Positions 19,213 to 34,106 of a stretch of DNA of 64,000 nucleotides are shown here, in pieces. The stretch is from Escherichia coli (GTDB taxonomy: Bacteria > Pseudomonadota > Gammaproteobacteria > Enterobacterales > Enterobacteriaceae), in NCBI RefSeq assembly GCF_041248615.1, contig NZ_CP158426.1; one strand, 5' to 3'. The notes below the pieces were generated by a model that was given only the letters and a program-made list of their open reading frames with translations, ran no database searches and was not told the DNA's origin. How positions within the stretch are numbered: the first letter of the stretch is position 1; each line of letters starts with the position of its first letter. Made by a program: the position numbers and the translations under genes.

Positions 19213-20037
19213 TTATCGCATTATGCCCATGAAGCCATGTACGCCCATATACACACCAACTAAGCCAATCAACAGACTGGAAAAATAGGGGGCGCGTTTA
19301 GCGAGAGTGTTAAATCCGCTCCAGCGTTTTGCGACCTGCTGAACGCTGATTGCTGCGCCAACGCCTACGGTGACCAGCGTTAACGCCAGGCCAATGCTGA
19401 AACTGACGACCAGTGTTGCGCCCAGTGTCAGGGCTTTCAACTGAATGCAAATCAACAGCACGGTAATTGCTGCCGGGCAGGGGATAAGGCCACCGGTTAA
19501 GCCAAATAACAAAATTTGCCAGTTGGTGACCTCTCTACCATCAAAGCGTCGTTTAATGTCATTGGCATGGGCTCGTGCATGGGCATCCTGATACTCGCCA
19601 TGTTCGTGATGGTGATGATGTCCATGGTCGTGGTGATCTTCGTGATCGTGGTGATGATGCTCATGATCATGCTCGTGCATATTCTCCAGCCAGTTTCGTT
19701 CGCCGCGCCAGGTACGCCAGAACATCCAGAACGCGGTGCCAATAATGATCACTGCGGAAATCAACTGGAGCCACGGTTCTGCTGATTGAGCAGTAAAGCG
19801 CTTGCTGATCACCATCCCGCCAAAGGCAATCAACCAGACCACTGCGGTATGCGAAATGGTTGCTGCCAGTCCGAGCATCACCGCCTGTTTAATGGTGCCT
19901 TTGATGGCGATGATAAACGCCGCCATCATCGTTTTTGAGTGCCCTGGTTCCAGGCCATGAAGCGCACCAAGTAAGATGGCGCTGGGGATGAAGAACCAGG
20001 CGTTTCCTTGCTGAAGAAGAGTTGTAAATTCGGTCAT
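19213..20037 (-). CDS. rcnA: Ni/Co efflux membrane protein RcnA
   Basis: Polytopic membrane ORF with the long His/Asp/Glu-rich loop (HEHDHEHHHHDHEDHHDHGHHHHHEHGE). Confidence 0.95.
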   Translation of the reverse strand: MTEFTTLLQQGNAWFFIPSAILLGALHGLEPGHSKTMMAAFIIAIKGTIKQAVMLGLAATISHTAVVWLIAFGGMVISKRFTAQSAEPWLQLISAVIIIGTAFWMFWRTWRGERNWLENMHEHDHEHHHHDHEDHHDHGHHHHHEHGEYQDAHARAHANDIKRRFDGREVTNWQILLFGLTGGLIPCPAAITVLLICIQLKALTLGATLVVSFSIGLALTLVTVGVGAAISVQQVAKRWSGFNTLAKRAPYFSSLLIGLVGVYMGVHGFMGIMR

Positions 20038-20074
20038 GATAATAATTCTTAGTATTAATTCGGCAATCTGATTC

Positions 20075-20109
20075 TACTCCCCCCCAGTACCTGATACTAC
20101 CCCCCAGTA
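20075..20109. promoter_or_regulatory. Two RcnR operator sites (TACT-G/C-run-AGTA) in the rcnA-rcnR divergent region
   Basis: tactcccccccagta (20075-20089) and tactaccccccagta (20095-20109) seen in sequence; match the described RcnR operator architecture. Confidence 0.75.
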
Positions 20110-20157
20110 GATTAATAGTGCTATGATTTTTCATATTCTTATTAACCAGGTGTTGCC

Positions 20158-20430
20158 ATGTCTCATACCATCCGTGATAAACAGAAACTGAAAGCGCGTG
20201 CCAGTAAGATTCAGGGCCAGGTCGTGGCGCTCAAGAAAATGCTCGACGAGCCGCACGAATGCGCTGCAGTTTTACAACAGATTGCTGCTATCCGTGGCGC
20301 GGTAAACGGTCTGATGCGGGAAGTGATTAAAGGTCATCTGACGGAACACATCGTTCACCAGGGGGATGAGCTAAAACGTGAAGAAGATCTGGATGTCGTT
20401 CTGAAGGTGCTGGATTCTTATATCAAATAA
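20158..20430 (+). CDS. rcnR: Ni/Co-responsive repressor RcnR (CsoR/RcnR family)
   Basis: 90-aa [71 protein letters not shown]. Confidence 0.95.
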
Positions 20431-20519
20431 TTTATTAACGCTATTGTAAAACTGCCGTTTTTCCTCGTTTACAACGCGTGCGCTGGACATTACCATCCTC
20501 CTCTGCGATTTATCATCGC

Positions 20520-20599
20520 AACCAAACGACTCGGGGTGCCCTTCTGCGTGAAGGCTGAGAAATACCCGTATCACCTGATCTGGATAATGCCAGCGTAGG
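20520..20599 (+). repeat. Left 80-bp direct repeat (attL-like); copy of the thiM TPP-riboswitch aptamer sequence
   Basis: aaccaaacgactcggggtgcccttctgcgtgaaggctgagaaatacccgtatcacctgatctggataatgccagcgtagg is identical base for base to 33185-33264. Confidence 0.9.
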
Positions 20600-20654
20600 T
20601 TGCCAACATTCTGATTAGTATTCATGTGGTTACATTTCTTTTTGTCCGTGTGTA

Positions 20655-21986
20655 ATGCACCTAATGTACAAAAAGAGCGTAAACATGAGGTACAAAACTC
20701 TTCCATACACGTTTCAAAGAAACGGTAATTACTATCTACAGATTCGGCTTTCGAATGGTCGGATGTATAAAAAATCACTTCTCACTGACAGCTATCGTGA
20801 AGTCTCTGCTTTGATGATTGGTGTTGCTCCGTACATTCCTTTTGTTAAATCATTAGCCATCACAATCCCGATGTTTGATGCCTTTGTTTCAAACCTGATT
20901 ATGTCAAAACTTAGGGCTGTAAAAGTTCCGCTGCTATCACATCAGTCGGTAATTACCCCTGCTACATTCGAGGAACCAGCGACACAAGCCGAACCGCAAA
21001 ACATGCTAACTCTTTCTGATGCGTGGGCTATGTATAAAGCGGAAAAGGGTAAAACATGGACAAAGTCGATCTCAAGGGCGAATGAGCGTTACATGGAAGT
21101 CTTGATGGTTGTCTTGGGAGAGACAACTGACGTAGTTGCGATTTCTAAGCAGGACATCAAGCAGGTGATGGAAGTTGTTGAGAATTTGCCTAAGCGTGTT
21201 GTCCAACCGTATCGCTCAATGAACATCCAGCAACTGATTGAATGTGATGATGTATCACCGAATGAGTTAGTAGGAGTGGAAGCCATTCATAAGCATCTCA
21301 AAATCTACAAATCGCTTTTCAAGACTTTTCTAACAGAAAACAAAGATATTTTGATTAAATCCCCAACTGATGGGGTAGTAGCAGCACCATCTAAAGCAAG
21401 GTTTGGAGCATACAGTTCGGCGGAGATGAAGAAGTTTGTAGAGTGGGCACTTAAGCAGCCAGATGGCTGGCAGAAGTGGATAACATTGTTGTTGGCATAC
21501 ACAGGAGCCAGAAGGGGAGAAATTGCCAAACTGGAAAAATCACAAATAAAATATGATGAGGATAGCCATCGGTATTATTTCCTGATTGCAGAAGGAGGGC
21601 AGGGGAAAACCGAAAATGCTACCCGACAAGTAGTGATACACCCTAAGTTGATCGAATGGGGTTTCATGGAATACGTTGATCGCCAGTGGAAAGAACGGAT
21701 TTTTTCAGAAGTGGCTGGTACAAACATGACGAAGATCGGTAAAGAATTTGCTGATGTGCGTGACCAGCTTGACATTCCGTACTTAGACGATTTTGGACAG
21801 CGGAGGCTTTTGCATAGCATTCGTCATTCTGTTTGCTCTACTGCGATGGCTGGATGGGTAAAGAACATCTTGCATCTGCAACAAACAGTAGGCCATGAGA
21901 AAAGTGGAGGGATCACTAAACGCTACTTACATACGTTCCCACTATCATCAATTTGTTATGTTATTGATGGGATTAGTTGGGTCTGA
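20655..21986 (+). CDS. Tyrosine-type site-specific integrase (island integrase); start may be at MRYKTLPY (20685)
   Basis: C-terminal catalytic signature: AYTGARRGE (box I Arg), HSIRHSV (H-x-x-R), ITKRYLH (Tyr nucleophile). Sits directly next to the left repeat. Confidence 0.85.
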   Translation: MHLMYKKSVNMRYKTLPYTFQRNGNYYLQIRLSNGRMYKKSLLTDSYREVSALMIGVAPYIPFVKSLAITIPMFDAFVSNLIMSKLRAVKVPLLSHQSVITPATFEEPATQAEPQNMLTLSDAWAMYKAEKGKTWTKSISRANERYMEVLMVVLGETTDVVAISKQDIKQVMEVVENLPKRVVQPYRSMNIQQLIECDDVSPNELVGVEAIHKHLKIYKSLFKTFLTENKDILIKSPTDGVVAAPSKARFGAYSSAEMKKFVEWALKQPDGWQKWITLLLAYTGARRGEIAKLEKSQIKYDEDSHRYYFLIAEGGQGKTENATRQVVIHPKLIEWGFMEYVDRQWKERIFSEVAGTNMTKIGKEFADVRDQLDIPYLDDFGQRRLLHSIRHSVCSTAMAGWVKNILHLQQTVGHEKSGGITKRYLHTFPLSSICYVIDGISWV

Positions 21987-22203
21987 AACTGCTAAGAATG
22001 ATAGGAAAAGCTACTTAATGATCCTTAGTTTTGGATGAAATTGAAGATTACAAAGATCTTGAGCGAATAAGAGCGTTTTTTAATCAAAAAAGCCATAAAA
22101 ACTTTTCTTGACTGTATATTAACACAGTGCTTCTACTATGTAGAAGAAATCGACATGAAAAATTTGATATGGTAAATTTTATCCATGATAACAAAAAGGT
22201 ATT

Positions 22204-23106
22204 GTGGATATGTTACTACCAATACGAGTTCATAAACGATTTCTAACTTTATTTAAGACTTTGCAAATTGACGATTGCCCACCGCAATCAACTTTAAATA
22301 TTCATGTACTTAATATCGAAAGCAATGAATTTATATACTGTAAATTAGTTGAAGAATTACGTGACATAATAATTACTTATGTACATTCGAATAGAAGGCT
22401 TGAGGAGTTTAAGGAAAGTTATCCTTCGTATAGCCCTAAACCTTTTTTCGAAGCAATACAAAAATTTCGCAATTATACGTCAAACGAAGGTGAGTTAGGT
22501 GAACTGCTTTTATACGCTTTTCTTGAAACAGGACTAAATGCTCCGAAATTACTTTCCAAAATGCAATTGAAAACAGATTCTAATGATTACATTAAGGGTT
22601 CTGATGGTGTACATCTGTTAGAATTAGATGATGGTTATCAATTAATATTTGGAGAATCAAAGCTCTATGCCGATCTTTTAGAAGGTGCTCGAGAAGCGTT
22701 TGATTCTATTTTAGATTTTAAAAGTAATGGAATGGCATTTGAAAGAGGGCTGATAGATACACACGTTATAAATGAAATGGTTTCAGAAGAAGGTTATGAG
22801 AAAATAAAATCAATTCTTCTTCCTTCTTCTGGCGATGATGGGCCAGATCTTGATTTATCCTTTGGTATATTTCTTGGTTTTGAATTGAAAATAGATAGCT
22901 CACAGTTATCATTGAAAAACAAAGAGTTTAGAGATTGGGTTAATGAGTCCGTGAAACAACATGCTACTCGCGTGGTCAGTACGATACGAAGGAAAATTAT
23001 TAATCATAAATTATATGGTCACGAATTCCACATATATATAGTTCCTTTTACCGATATTGATGTTACACGAAAAAAATTAATTCATGAAATGCTAACAATT
23101 AAGTGA
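22204..23106 (+). CDS. PD-(D/E)xK nuclease-like protein, HamA (DUF1837)-like candidate; start GTG 22204 or ATG 22210
   Basis: Motifs in the order expected for the restriction-endonuclease fold: acidic helix EGELGELLLYAFLE, then SDGVHLLELDDG, then LIFGESKLY (E-x-K). AT-rich; stop overlaps the start of the next gene. Confidence 0.55.
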   Translation: MDMLLPIRVHKRFLTLFKTLQIDDCPPQSTLNIHVLNIESNEFIYCKLVEELRDIIITYVHSNRRLEEFKESYPSYSPKPFFEAIQKFRNYTSNEGELGELLLYAFLETGLNAPKLLSKMQLKTDSNDYIKGSDGVHLLELDDGYQLIFGESKLYADLLEGAREAFDSILDFKSNGMAFERGLIDTHVINEMVSEEGYEKIKSILLPSSGDDGPDLDLSFGIFLGFELKIDSSQLSLKNKEFRDWVNESVKQHATRVVSTIRRKIINHKLYGHEFHIYIVPFTDIDVTRKKLIHEMLTIK

Positions 23107-25691
23107 ACACTATGAATGAATTAAATTCAAGTAAAAACATTCATTTGGCAGCTCGTCTTGCAGATGATGCTTTTGAAAGTGCTTATTTTAAAGAAATCAA
23201 TAAGTTTATAAGTGGTTTATACAATTACAGTTTATTTAACTGCGATTCAGATGTTAGTCTCTCCGAGAGTGATAACAATAAAATAGCACACGCTTTGCGT
23301 TTTGCAGATATATTTTCACATTCTTCAAAAGAAAATCATAGATCATGTGCATTTGAAATTATAAGTAGAATAGCCTTATTAAAAAAACATGATCCTTATT
23401 TTAAATTTATAGGTACTGCTGTTATTAATCGGCTTGGGGTTTATGCAGCAGAAAAACTCATATCAAAAGGGGTAAAATTACCCTTAGATAGAGAAGTTGA
23501 TTCTATTATTAAAAAATCAGTTCAGAAAACAGATGAAGATGGAGTATATTTCACTGATAAACAACATGAGTTATACAAACTTTTAAAAAGTAGCAAAACA
23601 ATTAGTTTTGCTGGTCCCACTTCGATGGGAAAGTCATTTGTTATTAATGCATACATTAAGGAAATAACTCTTAAAAAAGAGCTTAAAAATATAGCTTTAA
23701 TTGTTCCTACACGGGCTTTAATAAGCCAAAATGCACTTAAGTTAAAAATTGATATTGCATTGTATAAGAATGAAAGCCCTTATAAAGTTGTTACGACATC
23801 CTACATTATTAATGGTGATGAAAGTAAAAATAAAGGCTATATTTTTATTCTCACCCCAGAAAGGCTGGTTAGTCTCATAAGCACTATTCCTGGACTAATG
23901 ATTGATTATGTTTTTGTAGATGAAGCTCAAAAGTTAACAACAAAAAATGATTCGAGGAGTCTTGTTACTTATTCAGCTATAGAGCAAACAATTAGTAAAA
24001 ATCCTGAGGCAAGATTATTCTTCTCTTCACCTAATTTATCTAATCCTGAAATATTTAATATTTTGTTTGATAGAAAAGACGCTTCGGTATATAGAAATAC
24101 AGAAGGTGCAACTACTCAGAATATGTATTTTATTGATCTTTTAAATAGCAGCTTTAGCTATGTTAATACCGAGAAAAGGACGCTTGAAAAAATAGATGAG
24201 ATCTCTAATACTTACACGAATACAAATGATGTTATCTATAAATTAAATAATGGTAAAAGTAAAATAATTTATTGTGGGGGGATAGAAAGCACGCTTGAGA
24301 GAACACGTAGCTTTATCAATTATCTCAAAATTAATAAGAAAAAAAGAAAGCATTTAAATTTAGAAATATCTTCTGAGATAAGAAACTTTGTTCATGATAA
24401 CTATGAACTTGCAGAAGCCATCAACTATGGTGTTGCTTTCCACTTTGGAAACTTGCCTCAATCGATTCGAGATTTAATTGAGCATCATTTCAAAATAGGA
24501 AATATTGACTATCTATTCTGTACATCAACCCTACTTGAGGGAGTCAATTTACCTGCAAGATCCGTATTTATTCTTACGCATAAAAAAGGCCCCAGTCCAT
24601 TAGAGTCGGTTGATTTTTGGAATCTGGCTGGGAGAGCTGGGCGATTATCTATGGAATTGTCAGGGGATATTTTTTGTATTAGGGATGATAATAAGCTTTG
24701 GAATAAAAAAGCTGTTGATAATATCCTTCTGTCTGACAAAAATAACATTTCATTAAAGCCAAGCTTCTATATTGAAGACGAAAAAAGATTGAACGATTTA
24801 CACCATATAATTACGACTGGTAAAACAGGGAATATTAAAAATGCTGAGTTCCTTAGAACTTTAGGAGATATGATAAGAATAGACACTCTGAGGGATTCTA
24901 AAGAACTTCCTCTTATTAGTTATTTCCAAAGCAGTGGAAAATCAGAAATTTTGTTAAGTGCAGAAAAAAGCACTGAAAATATTACCATGCCAATGAATAT
25001 CCTTTTGGCAAATAGTCATATTGCGATTGATTCGCAGTATCATGCTTTTAAAAAAATAAAAAGCCTTACAGTTAAGGAACTGAAATTATCATGGCAGCCT
25101 ACATACGAAGAAATTAAAGAAAAATTGAATTTGATATTCGATATTTACCAAGTTGAAAAGTTTGCAACAGGTAGAGAACGTCTTTATTTAAATTCAATTC
25201 CATATTATGCAGTATTACTGTTTCAATGGATTCGTGGAAATAGTCTACAGGAAATTATCTCGGGGGCAATTGCTTATAGAAAGAACAAAAGTATATATAT
25301 TAAAAATACACCTGTTCTTTTTGACAGCGAAAACCCAGCTCATTTAACTGCATTAGTTAATGAAACTATAAAAGACATTGAGTTGCGTGTAGGTTACCAG
25401 TTACAAAATTATTTTTCACATTACTGTCAGCTTCTGAATTATGTGTTACAAGGAAATCCAGGGGCAAACTGGTCTCAGTTCATTGAGTTTGGCTCTAATG
25501 AGCCAATAGTATGGCACCTACAAATGATGGGCTTTTCAAGGGATAGTGCAGTTTTTCTCAAGAAGAATTTTTCAAAACATCTTAAACTTGATAATGAAAT
25601 GAATAAACTCATCATAATGGATAAGGAACTGATCAAGCGTTCTTTCAAAAAAGATGGACTACATTACTTAGAAATCCAATCGTTATTATAA
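23103..25691 (+). CDS. Superfamily-2 helicase (DEAQ box), HamB-like candidate
   Basis: Walker A/motif I FAGPTSMGKSFV, motif II VFVDEAQKL, motif VI-like NLAGRAGRL; about 170-aa N-terminal extension before the helicase core; GTGA start/stop overlap with the upstream gene. Confidence 0.6.
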   Translation: MNTMNELNSSKNIHLAARLADDAFESAYFKEINKFISGLYNYSLFNCDSDVSLSESDNNKIAHALRFADIFSHSSKENHRSCAFEIISRIALLKKHDPYFKFIGTAVINRLGVYAAEKLISKGVKLPLDREVDSIIKKSVQKTDEDGVYFTDKQHELYKLLKSSKTISFAGPTSMGKSFVINAYIKEITLKKELKNIALIVPTRALISQNALKLKIDIALYKNESPYKVVTTSYIINGDESKNKGYIFILTPERLVSLISTIPGLMIDYVFVDEAQKLTTKNDSRSLVTYSAIEQTISKNPEARLFFSSPNLSNPEIFNILFDRKDASVYRNTEGATTQNMYFIDLLNSSFSYVNTEKRTLEKIDEISNTYTNTNDVIYKLNNGKSKIIYCGGIESTLERTRSFINYLKINKKKRKHLNLEISSEIRNFVHDNYELAEAINYGVAFHFGNLPQSIRDLIEHHFKIGNIDYLFCTSTLLEGVNLPARSVFILTHKKGPSPLESVDFWNLAGRAGRLSMELSGDIFCIRDDNKLWNKKAVDNILLSDKNNISLKPSFYIEDEKRLNDLHHIITTGKTGNIKNAEFLRTLGDMIRIDTLRDSKELPLISYFQSSGKSEILLSAEKSTENITMPMNILLANSHIAIDSQYHAFKKIKSLTVKELKLSWQPTYEEIKEKLNLIFDIYQVEKFATGRERLYLNSIPYYAVLLFQWIRGNSLQEIISGAIAYRKNKSIYIKNTPVLFDSENPAHLTALVNETIKDIELRVGYQLQNYFSHYCQLLNYVLQGNPGANWSQFIEFGSNEPIVWHLQMMGFSRDSAVFLKKNFSKHLKLDNEMNKLIIMDKELIKRSFKKDGLHYLEIQSLL

Positions 25692-25697
25692 AACTGC

Positions 25698-25728
25698 CGA
25701 ATCAGAGTCTTTTATTGATTCTGATTCG
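25698..25728 (+). terminator. Hairpin immediately after the helicase gene (weak terminator candidate)
   Basis: CGAATCAGA-(13 nt)-TCTGATTCG; no strong T-tract, so confidence is low. Confidence 0.3.
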
Positions 25729-25999
25729 CACTTATATAGTTAAATCAAAAGGAGCATTAAAATTTTTCAGTAGCGATTTAGTATGCTAAATCGCTGCATA
25801 ACGAATCTGCTTCTAAATCTTGATTAAGTGTTTCGAACTGCCTTGATTGTTTATTGCTACACTTTATAATTAATCGCAACACACAAAACAATACAATGTA
25901 GGCAGTTGCACAGAATTAATTACAGGCACATTATGGATATCGAGAGGATTCGAACAGTTTTAAACTGCAAGCCCTTTGACTTTATCCCCTCCTACTATA

Positions 26000-26575
26000 T
26001 CAGCGTTTGATGCCGCTAATACTGGCAAGCATTTCTTTCTTCACACGAAAAACTGTAGCCCTGCCGCAATCACATAACTTTGCTATCTCGTCTGGTGTAT
26101 TCTTCCCGGCCTGTAACATATCGATAATCTTGTTATGTAGCTCTTTGTTCTTTTGCTTGCCCTTGTACTTCTTAGCCTCTTTAGCAAGAGCAATCCCCTC
26201 ATTGCGACGAGATGCGATCATACCCCGCTCAAATTCTGCAGCGGCTCCCATCATGGTTAGGATAAGGCGTGATTGTGGGGAATTATCAAAACTCATAGAG
26301 TTTGCAAGGAATTGAACAGTGATTCCACGAGCCACGAGGTTATCAATCATTTCCAGCAAATCGCGGGTATTACGTGCAAGGCGATCAATCGAGTGAGTAA
26401 CGAGCGTGTCACCTTCGCGGAGGTGTGAAAGCAGGTTCAACAATTCAGGTCTTTCGCTGGTGGACTTACCTGATTCTTTCTCTGCCACAATTTTGTCACA
26501 AACAGGTTCCAGCACTGCCAACTGACGCTCAAGATTTTGATCCTTTGTTGAGACTCTCGCGTAACCAAAAATCAT
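26000..26575 (-). CDS. Serine recombinase (resolvase/invertase family)
   Basis: N-terminus MIFGYARVSTKDQNLERQ (catalytic Ser in YARVST context), C-terminal HTH-like tail; 191 aa. Confidence 0.85.
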   Translation of the reverse strand: MIFGYARVSTKDQNLERQLAVLEPVCDKIVAEKESGKSTSERPELLNLLSHLREGDTLVTHSIDRLARNTRDLLEMIDNLVARGITVQFLANSMSFDNSPQSRLILTMMGAAAEFERGMIASRRNEGIALAKEAKKYKGKQKNKELHNKIIDMLQAGKNTPDEIAKLCDCGRATVFRVKKEMLASISGIKR

Positions 26576-26600
26576 TTTCCTGCCCTCACTTACGTGAAAA

Positions 26601-26662
26601 GTATCATTTGAATTTACTTAATGATACAGTATCATTTAAATGCATTCAACATCTAAATGATA
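26601..26662. promoter_or_regulatory. Cluster of three dyad-symmetric elements upstream of the serine recombinase gene (res-like site)
   Basis: GTATCATT-11 nt-AATGATAC; TGATAC-A-GTATCA; ATCATTTAAATG...CATCTAAATGAT. Position immediately 5' of the resolvase start is typical of res sites. Confidence 0.45.
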
Positions 26663-27081
26663 CTAAACGAGACGAGAAAAGCGAGTATCGTTAGGGAGTA
26701 CCCAAAAGAGATTTTTGATCGTGCGTTTTTTAGTCAATGTAGGGTTAGTGAAAAGTTCAGTACCGAGATCTGAGTTCACGGCATTTTGTCGACGGGGTTG
26801 AACCTGATTAGGCGAACGAGATTTTAAATCAGGCGGAATAAAACAAGTTGTACTTTTATCTGAGTAAAAGATCCCTTTAACTTTTTAGTCAGAAATCGTG
26901 ATACTAGGGGTTTGGTTATTTTGTGTCCTTAAGGCCAGTACTTTTAGCGAGGACGAAAAAACGGCCTACATGAGAACGCTTACAGTAACTTAAGTATATT
27001 ATCCAAAAAGTCACTTAACTTAAATCAATTTGGATGCAAAATCGCCACACTTTGCAAGTGAACACATACCGGGCAACAAGC

Positions 27082-27109
27082 AAATAAAAAAGGCCACTTT
27101 CGCGACCTT
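27082..27109 (-). terminator. Rho-independent terminator after the 119-aa gene
   Basis: Minus-strand RNA: AAGGUCGC-GAAA-GUGGCCUU (GNRA tetraloop) followed by UUUUUAUUUG. Confidence 0.65.
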
Positions 27110-27125
27110 GTACCAGTACAAACAC

Positions 27126-27485
27126 TCATTCAGAACGATCAAGTACCATATATGCTGGCTGACACATGCTGCCCCGCTCCTGTAGCCAGTAGTAATCAAG
27201 ATCGGCAACACGCACGTCCAATCCAGAATCTACACGGTTGATCTGTAACCGTAGCCCTACAGTATCCTTGTACGATAAACCAGATTTAACATTGTATTTG
27301 TACTTAACACCGTTTTCCTGTTCAAACTGTTTAAGGAAAGGCGTCATTTGTTTCTGAATTTCTTTCAAACAAATAACCTCATTATCAATAGCAAAGGGGG
27401 GTTCTGTTTTTCCATCAGGTACAGCAGCCTGTAAATGAAAGGAAGTACTCAACAATAACAGCATTGCAACAGAAGTCTTTTTCAT
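27126..27485 (-). CDS. Small secreted/periplasmic protein of unknown function
   Basis: Sec-type signal peptide MKKTSVAMLLLLSTSFHLQA; 43 bp downstream of the membrane-protein gene, same strand. Confidence 0.6.
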   Translation of the reverse strand: MKKTSVAMLLLLSTSFHLQAAVPDGKTEPPFAIDNEVICLKEIQKQMTPFLKQFEQENGVKYKYNVKSGLSYKDTVGLRLQINRVDSGLDVRVADLDYYWLQERGSMCQPAYMVLDRSE

Positions 27486-27528
27486 TTTAATTCCTTATTA
27501 AAGAACAGTACATTATATTTCAATGGAC

Positions 27529-28569
27529 TTAATAACAATATTTTATATTTCCTTCGGGTTTTCTCATGCATTTAATTCCTTCAGGAATATAATCAGTTAC
27601 GGGAGCAGGTCTGGCATCAGGTCTTGAAAGACGATTGGATATAGAAGACAACAGACTGAAAACACACTCATTAAATGATTTTTGATATTTATTTTTTTCA
27701 TAAAAGTACTGCATGGTGATTTTATCTCTTTCGTATTGCAATTCTTTGCCAAGCTGAATCCTATCCATATCAATTCCATTTCTCATAGCATTAAATCTTT
27801 CGTTCAATAAATTAAATTGAGATTTATTCCATTCATTTAAAGGAAATAAAGAATTGTTAAGCCTTTGCCTACAATTAGATTGCTCGATAGCTGACATGTA
27901 TTCTTTCATACTAACGCCAATATCTAAGTATGTGAGTTGTCCAGCAGTTCTATCAACTGAGTTATTAGGGTAAGATTTAATTTCAGTAAGTATTGACTCT
28001 GTTAATACTGCATTTTCTTCTAAATCTTTGCTAATAGTTATTTGAGCTTGTTCTCTTTTATCCTTATCAAATATTGAAATGTATTTCTTTACTATATCCT
28101 GATTAGCTTTCTCGGCTGCTACTAACGCATCTTGAACCTTCTTTTCCGCCGCTTTAACTCGTTGTTCTTCTACAAATTTCGCGTAGTCATCAGTATTTGT
28201 AATGTGATTTTCACGAGCGATAGAAAACTCTTTACTATCTTTAAAACCAAGTTTTTGTGCTCTGGCTCCATCGCTTGAAGATCGGGCAGAACTTGCCACG
28301 AAAGCGAGCACAATGATCAGTACAGGAACCGTATAATTATTAACGAGTTTATAGGGTAAGAACTTCGCTTTAAGCGTACCATAACCCAAAACAGCCCAGC
28401 CTATCGCGGCAGTACTTGCCAGTAGCTGGCACAATCCAGCGACGGAAAGCATGATTACCGACCAGAAGCCTGTACCGACTGCGAAAAGATCACCAAATTT
28501 CTCCATTGACGCAAGGAATAAAAACACTCCCCAAATGCCATAAAATCCTATTTTCAAATATTTACTCAC
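27529..28569 (-). CDS. Inner-membrane protein (3-4 N-terminal TM helices) with coiled-coil-rich soluble C-terminal domain; function unknown
   Basis: Hydrophobic segments in the first ~100 aa; charged helical region (EEQRVKAAEKKVQDALVAAEKANQDIVKK); AT-rich codon usage. Confidence 0.6.
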   Translation of the reverse strand: MSKYLKIGFYGIWGVFLFLASMEKFGDLFAVGTGFWSVIMLSVAGLCQLLASTAAIGWAVLGYGTLKAKFLPYKLVNNYTVPVLIIVLAFVASSARSSSDGARAQKLGFKDSKEFSIARENHITNTDDYAKFVEEQRVKAAEKKVQDALVAAEKANQDIVKKYISIFDKDKREQAQITISKDLEENAVLTESILTEIKSYPNNSVDRTAGQLTYLDIGVSMKEYMSAIEQSNCRQRLNNSLFPLNEWNKSQFNLLNERFNAMRNGIDMDRIQLGKELQYERDKITMQYFYEKNKYQKSFNECVFSLLSSISNRLSRPDARPAPVTDYIPEGIKCMRKPEGNIKYCY

Positions 28570-28779
28570 CGCAATTATCCTTTAATAATTTTCCAAATCG
28601 ATGGTTCGTTCTATTTGTATTATCGACAATAATTCGTTTGCCTTTAGGTAGATCCCTTAAAAAGGAATCCCCCCAAAATTTATAGATTAGCAGTTGTACC
28701 ACTCTCACTGTTTTGTCACTCCCATTATCTTCTCTCAGGTCAAAAGTACGGACTTAAAGCCGTCCGTGTTCAGGTGCTC

Positions 28780-28900
28780 AAGAGTAGCACGCATATCAAT
28801 AAATGATCGATAAAAACGATCAATTAATGGCTTATTGATCGCTATAACCTATCAATGACTATTAATTCAATACAAATCAATAGGTAAAATCGATCAAGAG
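28780..28900. repeat. ATCAAT/GATC-rich iteron-like cluster in an ORF-poor region
   Basis: About six ATCAAT (or complement) motifs in both orientations and several GATC sites within ~120 bp; further GATC pair at 29096-29103. Confidence 0.4.
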
Positions 28901-29552
28901 GATTCGTCATCCATGAAAGGGGTTATGTATCTGATTTCAATACAGGGAGTATTAGCGATACCATCACGCAAACGCTCTTAAAGCGTAGCTACGGCGTTTT
29001 GTAGGGTTTTTGGTCATTCATGTGTGTCAGTAATGAACATCGCATTCAGGGGCTTCCTGTGCGTTTTGTCCGAAACACCATCATGAAGGGGGACAGATCG
29101 GATCGGGGTCGCTTCGCTCTGGTCAGTACTGGATAGTTCTTTTCCAGTAACTGAAACCGCAGATACCCCACTAAGTACACAAAGGAATTATTTGTAGAAT
29201 AAGTAATGAAATAACAGTCAGTTATGTACTTACTGACAGAACTAAAAACGCGATTAGGTTCGCTCTGTCAGTGACCGAAGGGAACGCAACAGTAGAATCT
29301 AATCCAGCGAACAGTACACGCAAGCGGGTGCTGTTTAATTGTTTTATCTATGTAAACAATGGGATAGCTATCAAGTACTCACTGCGTGAGCACTCTCACT
29401 AACTACCCGAAACAGTTCGCTTGCTTCGCCGCTCCTACTTTCAGGTAGTTAATTCGCTTTCGCTCGTTGTGATGTCCGAAATTTATTACCTATAGTATTA
29501 TAAGGTATTATTTTCCGGACATTTATGTATTTTTATGATGGTGTTCTGGACA

Positions 29553-31028
29553 TCATTTTTTGCTTTTTTGTACTTCCTTTTCGTATTTGTTCCACATAGC
29601 CTTTTGCTCTTCGGGACTGAGTGCTGTATTACCACTGGCAAGAAACACCTTGAACGCTTCTAACTCAAGCCCTGGGTTGCGGCTTTTCCAGCGGCGAAAA
29701 CGCTTAGCGTGATTATCATCAAGAGTGAAACGCTTTTGCTTATTCTTTGAACCTTGCGGCCTGCCTCTCGACCTCTGCTCATCATCAATACCGATATCTA
29801 TATACTCAATATTATCTGTAAGAGATCTGGCTTGCCATTCATCAAAAACATAAACAGTCTGTGTTTCAGTACTGTCAAAATCCCTTGAAATTCCTCGTAG
29901 TACGAACTGGTGTAAACTTTCGTACTCCCTCGCAACATGTATCGCCTCGCCGTCAATCTCAAAGAACAATTCGCACTGTTTAGCCTCTGTTTCAGAGGGA
30001 CGCATACAAGCGAGCCAGACGCACGTGAGCAAGTGTTGGTACTGGTTAAACCCTCTGGCATCCGGGCTTATCTCTGTGCCGTTTTTGAGGCTCTGAGAAT
30101 CGCTTTTGTTCTTCGTCCAGTAGAAATCCTGTCCCTCAAGTTTTTTATCAATAAATGAGTATATTTTTTGTACTTTATCAGGGTTATTAGTCTTCCATGT
30201 CTTCGATAGTTTTTGATTTTTTGAGAAGTAATAAACCTTTAATCTGTCTTTGAGAGCTGTTTTTCGTGTCAGTAATCCTCCAAGTTCAGTACTTTCAAAG
30301 AGTTCTTTATTGCCTTTATAGATCAATGAATTTTCGAAATTAGCTCCGAGAAAGGTGATTGATACGTCTTTGTACTTACTGAGATCTTTCCATGCGGTAA
30401 TATTAAGCTGTTCCTTTTTCGCATCGGTAAAGTACTCATTATTCATGATGAACATATCATTTTCGTTAATTGCTGGTAGCTGGTTCAAAATATTCTTCAG
30501 TACTTCCCCTTGTATTTCTGGTTTTCTTTCTGCCGCAATATACATATTTTTATCATCTAATGTCAGTACATTGTGTATTAATGAATTAAGAATTGTATTT
30601 TTTATATTAGTATCACCCTCATTAATATTCTGAAAAGAGTGAAAATTAGTAACGTCGTCAATATAAATATTACAGTCAGATAACAATTCAGGAGGAATTT
30701 TGAAAAACGTTTTATCTGTTATGAGTAATGTTTTATTACTTCCAGATGAAAGAAAGTTAATAACTGAATTAATAACACTTTCATCTTTTGGTACTGTATC
30801 TGTAATTATATACTCGCAATTATTGATTTGCTTTGCTGTCTGCTTAATAAGTTCTTGAGTGTTCTGTACTAAAATATATTTTTCAGTACTGTTATTGATT
30901 ATATTGCATATAGCAGTAGTTTTACCTGAACCACAAGGGGCGGAGACATACTTAAATTTATTATAAATAGGTGTGGGATTAATCATTTGTACACGCTCCA
31001 TATTGATTAATGTAGAAAGGTCAGCCAT
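29553..31028 (-). CDS. P-loop NTPase with basic C-terminal tail containing an AT-hook-like RGRP motif; function unknown
   Basis: N-terminal Walker A SAPCGSGKTT, Walker B-like NIYIDDV; C-terminus RSRGRPQGSKNKQKRF. Confidence 0.6.
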   Translation of the reverse strand: MADLSTLINMERVQMINPTPIYNKFKYVSAPCGSGKTTAICNIINNSTEKYILVQNTQELIKQTAKQINNCEYIITDTVPKDESVINSVINFLSSGSNKTLLITDKTFFKIPPELLSDCNIYIDDVTNFHSFQNINEGDTNIKNTILNSLIHNVLTLDDKNMYIAAERKPEIQGEVLKNILNQLPAINENDMFIMNNEYFTDAKKEQLNITAWKDLSKYKDVSITFLGANFENSLIYKGNKELFESTELGGLLTRKTALKDRLKVYYFSKNQKLSKTWKTNNPDKVQKIYSFIDKKLEGQDFYWTKNKSDSQSLKNGTEISPDARGFNQYQHLLTCVWLACMRPSETEAKQCELFFEIDGEAIHVAREYESLHQFVLRGISRDFDSTETQTVYVFDEWQARSLTDNIEYIDIGIDDEQRSRGRPQGSKNKQKRFTLDDNHAKRFRRWKSRNPGLELEAFKVFLASGNTALSPEEQKAMWNKYEKEVQKSKK

Positions 31029-31370
31029 TCCAGTGTCTGGCCTTTCGTTGTTTTAGTTATTAGTCTTTTTGAGTTGCGACAACTGCAAGAGAATGTTTAT
31101 AAACAAGTGAAATAAGCAGTTTTACCGCCTCAAAAGCTACAGTCAGTTTCGTAATTATTTTCGAAAGCATCGTAAATTTCACTTCGCTATCTTCTATGCA
31201 AAAATTAGCAGCCTGAGGTATTTAATGATTGAGATGTGGCCTGTTGATAAGAGGGTTTGTATTGCTTGTTCTGCTCTTTGTTAATTTGTGACTTATTCCT
31301 TTCACAATGATCGGCTATGTTTGATAACTCTGTTAGGAAATCACCTATGGCTACCATATTGGATTTGCCC

Positions 31371-32276
31371 CTATATTTCCAGACACCTGTTATCACTTAA
31401 CCCATTACTGGCCTGCTGCCGCAGATATTCCCGTGGCGAGCGATAACCCAGTGCACTATGCGGATGCCATTCGTTATAATGCTCGAACGCCTCTGCAAGG
31501 TTCTTTGCTGCCGTTAACCCGTCTGGTTTAGGCATGATACTGATGTAGTCACGCTTTATCGTTTTCACGAAGCTCTCTGCTATGCCGTTACTCTCCGGAC
31601 TCCGCACCGCCGTGTTCTTCGGTTCAAGCCCCAATATCCGGGCAAACTGCCGTGTTTCATTAGCCCGGTAGCATGAACCATTATCCGTCAGCCACTCTAC
31701 TGGAGACGCCGGAAGCTCGTTGCCGAAGCGGCGTTCCACCGCTCCCAGCATGACGTCCTGTACTGTTTCACTGTCGAAGCCGCCCGTAGTGACTGCCCAG
31801 TGCAGTGCCTCACGGTCACAGCAGTCCAGCGCGAACGTGACTCGCAGTTTTTCTCCGTTATCACAGCGGAACTCGAACCCGTCAGAGCACCATCGTTGAT
31901 TGCTTTCTTTCACGGCCACTTTGCCAGTATGTGCCCGTTTCGATGGCGGTACAGCGGTTTTTCGCTCAAGCAACAGCGCATTCTGGCGCATGATCCGGTA
32001 AACACGTTTGGCATTGATCGCAGGCGTACCATCAAGTTCGGCCTGTCTGCGAAGCAGCGCCCATACCCGACGATAACCATACGTGGGCAGCTCTCCGATA
32101 ACATGGTGTATACGGAGAAGCACATCCGTATCATCTGAGTGACGGCTGCGGCGACCATCTTTCCAGTCATCGGTTCGTCTGAGAATTACGTGCAACTGCG
32201 CACGCGACACCCGGAGACAACGGCTGACTAAGCTTACTCCCCATCCCCGGGCAATAAGGGCGCGTGCGCTATCCAC
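31371..32276 (-). CDS. insD: IS2 transposase OrfB (InsD), DDE domain
   Basis: 301-aa ORF recognised as IS2 InsD; overlaps insC in the -1 frame as expected for an orfAB frameshift fusion. Confidence 0.9.
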
Positions 32277-32599
32277 TTTTTTGCACGCCCGTATTCAACG
32301 GCTTCTTTAAGGAGTTCATTTTCCATCGTTTTTTTGCCGAGCAGGCGCTGGAGTTCTTTAATCTGCTTCATGGCAGCAGCAAGTTCAGAGGCAGGAACGA
32401 CCTGCTCTCCTGCGGCCACAGCAGTAAGACTTCCCTCCTGGTATTGCTTGCGCCAGAGAAATAACTGGCTGGCTGCCACACCGTGTTGCCGGGCAACAAG
32501 GGAGACCTTCATTCCCGGTTCAAAACTCTGCTGAACAATAGCGATCTTTTCCTGTGTAGTACGCCGTCTGCGTTTCTCCGGTCCTAAGACATCAATCAT
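32234..32599 (-). CDS. insC: IS2 OrfA (InsC), HTH protein
   Basis: [56 protein letters not shown]...; start taken at MIDVL (ORF track begins 45 nt upstream). Confidence 0.9.
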
Positions 32600-33184
32600 C
32601 TGCTCTCCAATGACTAGTCTAAAAACTAGTATTAAGACTATCACTTATTTAAGTGATATTGGTTGTCTGGAGATTCATGGGGCCAGTCTACATATAATCA
32701 TGTTCATCTTCTAATTCTTTAAATTTTAATAGAGAAATCTCTTCATAATATTCTTTCATTTTCATATAAATCACCTTTTATTTTTTTGTTGTTAACACAG
32801 GTTTTTTTCTGCACTACACATTATAGCACATAGAATTAATTCGTTTCATTTTCTGTCAATGAAATAGAGTAAAGATAAATGCTTTTATAAAGCACTTATC
32901 ACATCCGTTGCCTTGCTATATATAAAAAGTTCTCCAAACTATACTGGTGTATATTTTCCCCATCAGATACAGTTGTTTTTAAACATTACAATGTTGGATT
33001 CTTGGTTCCAAATAAATCGAGCAACTATTAGTGTTTCAAAATGAAGTTGGGAGCTATTCCTTAATTCGTATGAGGTACAAAATGGGGTACTCGGTGGGGT
33101 ACAGCGTGTATAAGTGACGTCACCACGGGTAAACTTGCATCGGCGAGCAACTTAACCTAAGCTGACAAAAATTAAGAGAAATGT

Positions 33185-33317
33185 AACCAAACGACTCGGG
33201 GTGCCCTTCTGCGTGAAGGCTGAGAAATACCCGTATCACCTGATCTGGATAATGCCAGCGTAGGGAAGTCACGGACCACCAGGTCATTGCTTCTTCACGT
33301 TATGGCAGGAGCAAACT
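33185..33317 (+). promoter_or_regulatory. thiM TPP riboswitch (thi-box aptamer plus expression platform); its first 80 bp are also the right direct repeat (attR-like) of the island
   Basis: Sequence ...cgactcggggtgcccttctgcgtgaaggctgagaaatacccgtatcacctgatctggataatgccagcgtagggaagtcacggaccaccaggtcattgcttcttcacgttatggcaggagcaaactATG matches the recalled E. coli thiM riboswitch. Confidence 0.9.
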
Positions 33318-34106
33318 ATGCAAGTCGACCTGCTGAGTTCCGCGCAATCTGCGCACGCGTTACACCTTTTTCACCAACATTCCCCTCTTGTGCACTGCAT
33401 GACCAACGATGTGGTGCAAACCTTTACTGCCAATACCTTGCTGGCGCTCGGTGCATCGCCAGCGATGGTTATCGAAACCGAAGAGGCCAGTCAGTTTGCG
33501 GCTATCGCCAGTGCGTTGCTGATTAACGTTGGCACGCTGACGCAGCCACGCGCACAGGCGATGCGTGCCGCCGTTGAACAGGCAAAACGCTCTCAAACAC
33601 CCTGGATGCTTGATCCAGTAGCGGTGGGTGCACTCGATTATCGCCGCCGTTTTTGTCTGGAACTTCTGTCTCATAAGCCAACCGCCATACGTGGTAATGC
33701 TTCGGAAATCATGGCATTAGCTGGCGTTGCTAATGGTGGACGGGGAGTGGATACCACTGACGCCGCAGCTAACGCGATACCCGCTGCACAAACACTGGCA
33801 CGGGAAACTGGCGCAATCGTCGTGGTCACTGGCGAGATGGATTATGTTACCGATGGACATCGTATCATTGGTATTCACGGTGGCGATCCGTTAATGACCA
33901 AAGTGGTAGGAACTGGCTGTGCATTATCGGCGGTTGTCGCTGCCTGTTGTGCGTTACCAGGCGATACGCTGGAAAATGTCGCATCTGCCTGTCACTGGAT
34001 GAAACAAGCCGGAGAACGCGCAGTCGCCAGTAGCGAGGGGCCAGGCAGTTTTGTTCCACATTTCCTTGATGCGCTCTGGCAATTGACGCCGGAGGTGCAG
34101 GCATGA
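33318..34106 (+). CDS. thiM: Hydroxyethylthiazole kinase
   Basis: 262-aa [36 protein letters not shown]...; 4-bp overlap with thiD. Confidence 0.95.

Follow-up and report, generated by a model that had tools for sequence, protein, structure and literature searches.

A predicted superfamily 2 helicase gene and its adjoining non-coding element belong to the backbone of defence-carrying islands in Enterobacterales and may serve their replication

Results

A helicase gene and a gene-free region within an integrative island

The window analysed here, a 64,000-nucleotide stretch of Escherichia coli DNA, contains an integrative island of 12.7 kb (~11.3 kb without a secondary IS3-family insertion sequence, IS), in which a 491-codon open reading frame (ORF) on the minus strand (29553-31028) is followed by 983 bp of non-coding DNA (28570-29552). 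This gene, its predicted helicase product and the adjoining DNA are the subject of this study. Along the island, a tyrosine integrase gene and the genes for HamA and HamB are followed, on the opposite strand, by those for a small serine recombinase, a 119-aa protein and a 346-aa protein, the 983-bp gap, the helicase gene and a 75-aa ORF. The part of the window from 28500 to 31400 is 100% identical to the chromosome of E. coli strain NRZ14408. An initial annotation, made from the sequence, had described the ORF product as a P-loop NTPase with a basic RGRP-containing tail, next to an ORF-poor region with repeats, and had proposed either a replication (Rep)/helicase and origin module of a satellite resembling a phage-inducible chromosomal island (PICI), or an NTPase-driven defence or abortive-infection effector.

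The 491-aa frame and its Walker A motif are as that annotation described them, except that translation probably begins at Met15 (codon 30984-30986, first base 30986), which gives a product of 477 aa. This start is the probable one because a GGAG motif lies 9 nt 5' of the codon, the NCBI Prokaryotic Genome Annotation Pipeline (PGAP) places the start at the position equivalent to Met15 (a 1,434-nt coding sequence), the Klebsiella and Morganella orthologues start at the equivalent methionine, and residues 1-20 are disordered in the AlphaFold2 model. The ratio of nonsynonymous to synonymous substitution rates (dN/dS) against the Enterobacter, Klebsiella and Morganella orthologues is 0.11-0.20, indicating purifying selection.

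The protein is predicted to be a complete two-domain SF2 helicase

Judged by its motifs and modelled fold, the ORF product is a complete superfamily 2 (SF2) helicase with two RecA domains, from an uncharacterised family; the label 'P-loop NTPase' rests on a real motif but is too general. In the family alignment, the Walker A motif (motif I, CGSGKTT, residues 32-38; 30915-30935) has Gly33 and Lys36 invariant among 49 homologues with identity down to 20%. The Walker B motif (motif II, IYIDD; 30654-30668) has an invariant Asp124, and its second acidic residue is Asp here and Glu in the long, primase-fused homologues described below. An RGxN element resembling motif V is found as well, and motif VI (QFVLRGISR, family form QFVxRGxxR; 29883-29909) retains Gln374, Arg378 and Arg382 invariantly. 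The AlphaFold2 model built from this alignment (predicted local distance difference test, pLDDT, 90.4; predicted template modelling score, pTM, 0.77) contains two tandem RecA-like domains, with disorder limited to the N-terminus and the RGRP segment.

The structure-based homology search of a predicted model, which the initial annotation had called for, returns an SF2 helicase fold with XPD/DinG as the best matches, joined by Rad3, Snf2 and HsdR, all of them DNA helicases or translocases; Hna, DdmD and Cas3 are among the weaker matches, and viral 'origin-binding protein' structures give far weaker matches than the XPD/DinG-type folds. The likeness to XPD/Rad3/DinG, including the type IV CRISPR protein CasDinG, is one of overall fold, whereas identity is 11-13% and both size and C-terminus differ. 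The four-cysteine Fe-S cluster domain that XPD/DinG proteins carry as an insertion in RecA1 has no counterpart, since no cysteine cluster is conserved in the family alignment and the sole widely conserved cysteine is Cys32, which precedes the Walker A glycine. CasDinG-type members also have no Fe-S cluster.

Sequence searches of Pfam, NCBIfam and PDB give matches that reach the Walker A region only. The Pfam matches are weak and lie within the N-terminal ~100 residues (the best is ResIII, 8e-5 over residues 26-75; DEAD also appears), and the PDB search found no solved homologue beyond motif I. The ResIII match covers no more than the Walker A region, which every SF2 protein shares. Over its full length the helicase is matched by phrog_2467, a PHROG family with no assigned function (1e-38), and AFDB50 and BFVD contain hundreds of uncharacterised relatives from gamma- and alphaproteobacteria and from jumbo and T4-like phages.

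The basic tail of the initial annotation is present as RSRGRPQGSKNKQKRF (residues 419-434; 29727-29774) and is predicted to be disordered, with pLDDT below 50 at residues 419-430. A GRP tripeptide follows motif VI in 54 of 128 family representatives, mostly 39-44 residues on, when ~0.1 representatives would be expected by chance, counted anywhere in the 110-residue tail. The GRP core and basic flanks of RSRGRPQGSKNKQKRF, set in a disordered segment, suggest a candidate AT-hook for the DNA minor groove. The AlphaFold2 model continues with a C-terminal three-helix domain (residues 438-490; 29559-29717), a candidate DNA-binding or specificity domain.

Relatives of the helicase are fused to primases

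Long proteins of 750-990 aa make up about a third of the family's representatives at 50% identity. The phrog_2467 domain is found in all ten long homologues tested, and eight of them carry a DNA-primase-family domain added N- or C-terminally. Among the fusion domains are phrog_16950 (8e-31), phrog_9765, phrog_3228 ('replicative helicase-primase') and phrog_3712 ('replication origin binding'), and one long homologue matches Pfam Prim-Pol (4.9e-17). The primase fusions in relatives thus point towards a replication role. They also fit the prediction by Kazlauskas et al. 2018 (PMC5862659) of a UL9-like SF2 helicase family fused to archaeo-eukaryotic primases (AEPs) in plasmids and viruses. The island helicase resembles that family (pVOG1685/9714, All3500-family AEP fusions), as well as phrog_2467 and phrog_31024, in being a remote SF2 protein whose kin are primase-fused in mobile elements and have T4-like and jumbo phage homologues, phrog_2467 being likened by description. 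Unlike the pVOG1685/9714 members, it has no primase, carries a GRP/AT-hook tail and resides in an integrative defence island. By these sequence relationships it is best filed as a stand-alone member of an uncharacterised, primase-associated SF2 family of mobile elements.

A second comparison is with the CyRepA plasmid Rep proteins, which have been experimentally validated and in which a Toprim-like domain is joined to a DEXDc domain (PMC10079941). Like CyRepA1 and CyRepA2, the island protein is built around a DEXDc (SF2) domain, and it gives a weak match to NF042913; unlike CyRepA1 (NF042913), it scores 20.3 bits against a cut-off of 200, over residues 26-75 only, and has no DUF3854/Toprim-like domain. 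The T4-like phage S13 encodes its homologue in the DNA-metabolism region, with nrdC on one side, gp55 on the other and gp47/46/45/44/62 nearby. The Methylobacterium nodulans plasmid pMNOD04 (37.5 kb) encodes a 467-aa homologue (locus L042, 33356-34759) together with ParA and ribbon-helix-helix (RHH) partition genes and no annotated Rep, and this homologue could be the replication protein of the plasmid. In the Agrobacterium jumbo phage Atu_ph07, a 762-aa homologue is followed by ~1 kb without an annotated gene (L046, 9305-10293), which echoes the island layout.

A structured non-coding element follows the helicase gene

The ORF-poor region noticed in the initial annotation is real: the gap has a GC content of 0.40 and no ORF of 50 aa or more, and its motifs cluster beyond chance. 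Within 120 bp it contains four GATC motifs (a count reached by 3 of 300 shuffles) and six TTGAT/ATCAA motifs (reached by none of 300). An array of three ~18-22-bp GATC-containing TTGATCG.../...ATCAA boxes (28804-28897), a candidate operator or iteron array, lies 5' of the downstream operon and is kept in the Enterobacter, Klebsiella, Providencia and E. bugandensis loci. We considered these boxes as paired recombination sites around the cargo and rejected this, as the window contains no second copy.

Read from the helicase gene outwards on the minus strand, the gap begins directly 3' of the stop codon with a conserved box, TGTCCAGAACACCATCA (29536-29552), of which an inverted copy lies at 29067-29087. 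The AACACCATCA core of the stop-codon box is kept in Providencia (L009) and in a locus whose helicase is 51% identical (L012). It is followed by a 51-bp palindrome with TGTCCG...CGGACA arms and an AT-rich core (29472-29522), which recurs in relatives: a TGTC(C)...GGACA palindrome with an AT-rich core follows every helicase homologue that could be read through that stretch, and is less regular in Providencia (fold z -1.0). The next part, a structured element on the gene-sense (minus) strand (29252-29459), is delimited by folding and by compensatory changes. It comprises H1, an 18-bp stem enclosing a GC mini-hairpin (29398-29453), H2, a 10-bp stem with a GCA loop (29373-29395), H3 (about 29312-29334) and a further composite hairpin (about 29252-29305). 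A 3' conserved block on the same strand (29040-29133) contains TGTCC-N19-GGACA with the inverted AACACCATCA box (29063-29095) and is also present in helicase-less relatives at the ffs locus. In all, five TGTCC motifs stand in inverted pairs (29063-29095, 29472-29522, 29536-29552), and a 21-bp inverted repeat, TGTCC-N2-AACACCATCA, brackets 444 bp. The TGTCC arms, which we presume to resemble the half-site ends of Tn3/gamma-delta resolvases, could be candidate sites for the small serine recombinase of the island.

This DNA is conserved far beyond its surroundings. Some 400 nt of it (about 29056-29460, ~100 nt past the stop codon) are 80-96% identical to the elements of E. bugandensis, Phytobacter and Pantoea, whereas identity is 55-58% for the helicases and 53-70% for their coding DNA, with saturated synonymous divergence (dS). 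A 21-mer of the conserved block occurs in 38 loci, including the window and 22 metagenomic loci. Of these loci, 35 include upstream sequence, and in all 35 the block is immediately preceded by the helicase gene in matching orientation. From this pattern of conservation, the gap DNA is judged to be functional and strictly linked to the helicase gene.

In the 5' ~210 nt of the block, 98.8% of 59 pairs are kept across 25 distinct sequences, compared with 29-37% in slid controls. Compensatory changes are seen at four pairs, one of which splits into CG in 14 sequences and UA in 11, with none broken, and several invariant G.U pairs mean that the pairing works on the gene-sense strand only. A covariance model of H1 and H2 found every E. 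coli-type copy (97-113 bits) and did not find the Providencia and L012 versions. Direct folding of the latter two nevertheless reveals the same order of features with unrelated stem sequences: the AACACCATCA box at the stop codon, the TGTCC...GGACA palindrome, a long hairpin enclosing a small GC hairpin, and a second hairpin with a GCA or GCAA loop (fold z = -5.4 here, -8.0 in Providencia and -7.2 in L012). Long-range pairing of the 3' half of the block was rejected as unstable between two RNAalifold runs, and we therefore claim structure for the 5' ~210 nt only. In Providencia (L009, 11640-12160), the hairpins are separated from the GATC boxes by ~190-bp tandem repeats in two to three copies, which E. 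coli-type elements do not have.

The element has no Rfam counterpart, as a search of 20000-34000 of the window against Rfam 15 (E<=1) returned only two thiamine pyrophosphate (TPP) riboswitches and one chance-level match. The conserved block has no blastn similarity in 72,556 plasmids (PLSDB) or 50,697 phage records, and IMG/VR yields no exact 26-mer match; because no plasmid or phage similarity was found, the block is not a borrowed oriT, pac or cos among sequenced replicons. On the sense strand there is no sigma-70 promoter-like site between the gene and the element, promoters are not above chance overall, and the sole site resembling an intrinsic terminator lies far downstream, in the box array.

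The helicase is a backbone gene across Enterobacterales

The same backbone surrounds helicase homologues of 51-99% identity in Enterobacter, Klebsiella, Providencia, E. bugandensis, Morganella and metagenomic contigs. It runs from an integrase (tyrosine or large serine) through the helicase, a gene-free gap of 0.6-1.0 kb, small proteins and variable cargo to a small serine recombinase, which all complete islands examined encode at the cargo end or close to it. The helicase gene adjoins the integrase in the E. coli, Enterobacter, Klebsiella and Providencia islands and in metagenomic contigs, even where the integrase type is swapped. The cargo varies from Hachiman to SLATT/DUF4326/DUF488/DuOB, a Cap4 nuclease with AAA_23, a kinase with tetratricopeptide repeats (TPR), or an 'anti-phage protein'. 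The helicase is therefore a core gene of the backbone and not cargo, since it stays fixed beside the integrase while both cargo and integrase change. In E. coli alone, integrase and cargo vary among at least three sites that the backbone occupies (the thiM riboswitch, yggS/yggR and ffs/ybaA).

Two relatives of the island at the E. coli ffs/ybaA locus, L040 (9001-9330) and L041, have no helicase gene. What they retain is the GATC/TTGAT array, ~100 nt at the 3' side of the conserved block, cargo, the small recombinase and the small secreted protein; their left half differs and carries an integrase, a 155-aa protein and a RipA-family membrane protein. Since both the array and this 3' part of the block persist there, we assign them to the downstream module and not to the helicase. 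One 10,481-bp metagenome contig, L043, corresponds exactly to a single island, with a large serine recombinase, the helicase, the gap, small proteins, cargo of the Cap4-nuclease/AAA_23 type and a small recombinase, and many other carriers lie on contigs of 9-13 kb. Such island-sized contigs more likely reflect assembly breaks at the island ends.

In the literature searched, we found no description of this backbone or of its structured element. Hochhauser et al. 2023 reported E. coli defence islands with an integrase only, whose mobility is unexplained and which are perhaps uncharacterised satellites. One group of such integrase/recombinase-only islands now gains a recognisable backbone, consisting of an SF2 helicase, a structured cis element and a small serine recombinase, that carries different defence cargo at each of its E. 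coli sites and in many enterobacterial genera.

Discussion

A possible replication module

We tentatively favour the reading that the protein is a replication helicase, and probably the origin-recognition protein, of this family of small integrative mobile islands, a role we consider a serious possibility while stopping short of calling it probable. DNA binding, unwinding at the cis element and replication itself are what we infer from the features described above. As a plausible mechanism, the integrase would excise the island as a circle, and the helicase would be tethered through its disordered GRP/AT-hook and C-terminal helices to the cis element adjoining its gene from the stop codon onwards, made up of the AACACCATCA/TGTCC boxes, the AT-rich palindrome and the strand-specific hairpins. 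ATP hydrolysis by the two RecA domains would then open the duplex. Priming and synthesis would come from host or helper enzymes, which we propose because the island encodes no primase and no polymerase, and the small serine recombinase may afterwards resolve multimers. Such a module, if it exists, would explain island amplification after excision. It would also extend the short list of replicons in satellites and islands by one with an SF2-type initiator, and a widespread family that is mis-named 'type III restriction subunit R' would gain a function.

The island shares with the Rep-ori modules of Staphylococcus aureus pathogenicity islands (SaPIs) and other PICIs, with P4 alpha and with RepA of PICI-like elements (PLEs) a helicase-type gene at the integrase end, an adjoining non-coding region rich in repeats and palindromes, a small size (~11 kb) and defence cargo, and with PICIs and SaPIs also site-specific insertion with attachment (att) repeats (here a tyrosine integrase and an 80-bp direct repeat). 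It differs from SaPI/PICI, P4 and PLE in the SF2 class of its helicase, and in having no primase, no packaging or capsid genes, no recognised regulator and no IMG/VR 26-mer match. The helicases and initiators of SaPIs/PICIs, P4 and PLEs belong to classes other than SF2. No match to packaging or capsid-redirecting genes (terS, ppi, cpm) or to an AlpA/Stl regulator was found in the libraries used among the 346- and 119-aa proteins and their counterparts in L003 and L006, and the island encodes no terminase. The Rep/origin module proposed in the initial annotation thus holds in part: a DNA-handling helicase, a core gene, primase-fused relatives and linked cis DNA are all present, while satellite status lacks packaging genes, an IMG/VR copy and circular ends. 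'PICI-like satellite' is consequently a resemblance of layout only, given that packaging genes, a virome copy and an episomal form are all missing.

Two further systems resemble the proposed pairing of helicase and cis DNA. Herpesvirus UL9, also an SF2 helicase, has a C-terminal DNA-binding region, as the island protein may have, and acts on inverted binding sites flanking an AT-rich spacer, to which the TGTCC...GGACA palindrome around its AT-rich core looks similar; the sole sequence link, however, is marginal (Herpes_ori_bp, 1.3e-2, in 1 of 26 long homologues). In PriA/primosome assembly sites and plasmid single-strand initiation (ssi) signals, DNA hairpins are strand-specific initiation signals, so that an SF2 helicase is likewise paired with strand-specific hairpins, although no sequence relationship or specific fold relationship of PriA to the island helicase was found.

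Several observations weigh against a replication role. None of the 43 loci L001-L043 has a terminal overlap that would mark an episomal form, not even exactly island-sized contigs such as L043, and the island is without a primase of its own. Only 2 weak matches to the helicase turned up among 72,556 plasmids, so that it is not a common plasmid Rep. The gap has no strict DnaA-box match, its nearest being a single one-mismatch site, TTATCGACA at 28620, and no match to integration host factor (IHF) with the pattern used. An origin read by its own initiator should co-diverge with it, but here the conservation of the central block far exceeds that of the protein, which suggests that the block has a partner other than the helicase or acts as RNA; an RNA, or a site read by a conserved factor of the host or a helper, would account for this conservation no less well than a self-specific origin. 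The G.U-type pairs, too, fit RNA as well as single-stranded DNA. Finally, the helicase-less L040 and L041 and an IS-disrupted copy (L045) persist and keep the 3' block and the GATC boxes, and since helicase-less relatives keep them, the GATC/TTGAT boxes need not be the origin of the helicase.

Other explanations of the helicase and its element

In view of these points, other roles have to be weighed against replication. The protein might be a DNA translocase or helicase that serves another task of the mobile element, such as excision, recombination or multimer resolution at the TGTCC sites in concert with the small serine recombinase, displacement of nucleoid proteins from the AT-rich island or preparation of DNA for helper-mediated transfer. 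We think this rather unlikely: an SF2 helicase is not needed by any known serine-recombinase system, the fusion of relatives to primases speaks for replication, a relaxase is missing, and PLSDB plasmids contain nothing similar to the block. Less likely again is an RNA-directed helicase, for which the hairpins would be a structured 3' untranslated region or a non-coding RNA, bound or remodelled for regulation or for a primer or R-loop step. The strand-specific pairing with its invariant G.U pairs on the gene-sense strand, the lack of a sense-strand promoter or terminator between gene and element, the far higher conservation of the element than of the protein, with structure kept in distant lineages, and the many RNA helicases within SF2 all agree with such a role; against it, the protein is structurally closest to helicases and translocases of DNA, its relatives are fused to DNA primases, AT-hooks are motifs for the minor groove of DNA, and no Rfam family matches.

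The defence or abortive-infection effector that the initial annotation offered as its alternative is weakened by our results. An anti-phage or abortive-infection ATPase, acting alone or with the downstream membrane and secreted proteins, would suit a gene that sits in a defence island beside Hachiman, next to proteins without known function, and many defence systems use SF2 helicases, with Hna, DdmD and Cas3 among the weaker structural matches. Yet none of the PADLOC 2.0 families matches the helicase, when the neighbouring HamB scores 8e-296; Pfam and the AlphaFold2 model reveal no nuclease or other effector domain; the gene stays fixed by the integrase as the recognisable cargo changes; and both its primase-fused relatives and its strict linkage to a cis non-coding element point elsewhere, which makes a defence function improbable. 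A Res subunit of a type III restriction enzyme was also considered, in view of the weak ResIII match and of 'type III restriction endonuclease subunit R' being a frequent database name of the homologues. We reject it and regard it as very nearly inconceivable: neither this island nor the related ones encode a Mod methyltransferase, no endonuclease domain is present, and the match covers nothing but the Walker A region. Type III Res proteins are also much larger than 491 aa. As there is neither a Mod gene nor a nuclease domain, the database name is unfounded.

Returning to the replication helicase, a bolder version of this reading would make the helicase and its linked hairpin element a previously undescribed self-replication or helper-exploiting module. 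This module would define a new family of defence-shuttling islands in Enterobacterales, each with a tyrosine or large serine integrase, the SF2 helicase, the structured cis element and a small resolvase, and what the helicase recognises in the highly conserved 200-450-nt element would be a novel non-coding RNA or signal for single-strand initiation. We consider this fuller version unlikely, though conceivable.

Further features of the island

The insertion site of the island is the thiM TPP riboswitch of E. coli, and an exact 80-bp direct repeat of the aptamer marks both ends (attL, 20520-20599, and attR, 33185-33264, both on the plus strand). The tyrosine integrase gene (20655-21986) and the Hachiman cargo assigned by PADLOC (22204-25691; HamA 22204-23106, HamB 23103-25691) are on the plus strand. 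On the minus strand, the small serine recombinase (26000-26575) belongs to the resolvase/invertase family (gamma-delta resolvase 8e-24, Gin 1e-22). Two neighbours of the core module, also on the minus strand, lie between it and the gap: a 119-aa protein with a signal-peptide-like N-terminus (27126-27485), whose gene is 81% identical at the nucleotide level to copies in helicase-less islands, and a 346-aa protein with a hydrophobic, probably membrane-spanning N-terminus (27529-28569), both features being read from sequence. Neither has a family match in the Pfam-derived, PHROG, NCBIfam or PADLOC libraries, and their counterparts vary in size between lineages.

On the 5' side of the helicase gene, the small ORFs are not conserved between lineages. 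The 75-aa ORF (31205-31359 region) is interrupted by the IS3-family element (31360-32688, minus strand), which is absent from otherwise identical islands such as that of strain KE55, and an overlap of the alignments at the junction suggests a 9-bp target duplication. The left aptamer copy (20520-20617) still scores as a TPP riboswitch (58 bits) and lies ~40 bp 5' of the integrase start. Because this copy is still riboswitch-like and lies just upstream, transcription of the integrase gene may start at the thiM promoter of the host and be controlled by thiamine, with thiMD relying on the right copy (33185-33283).

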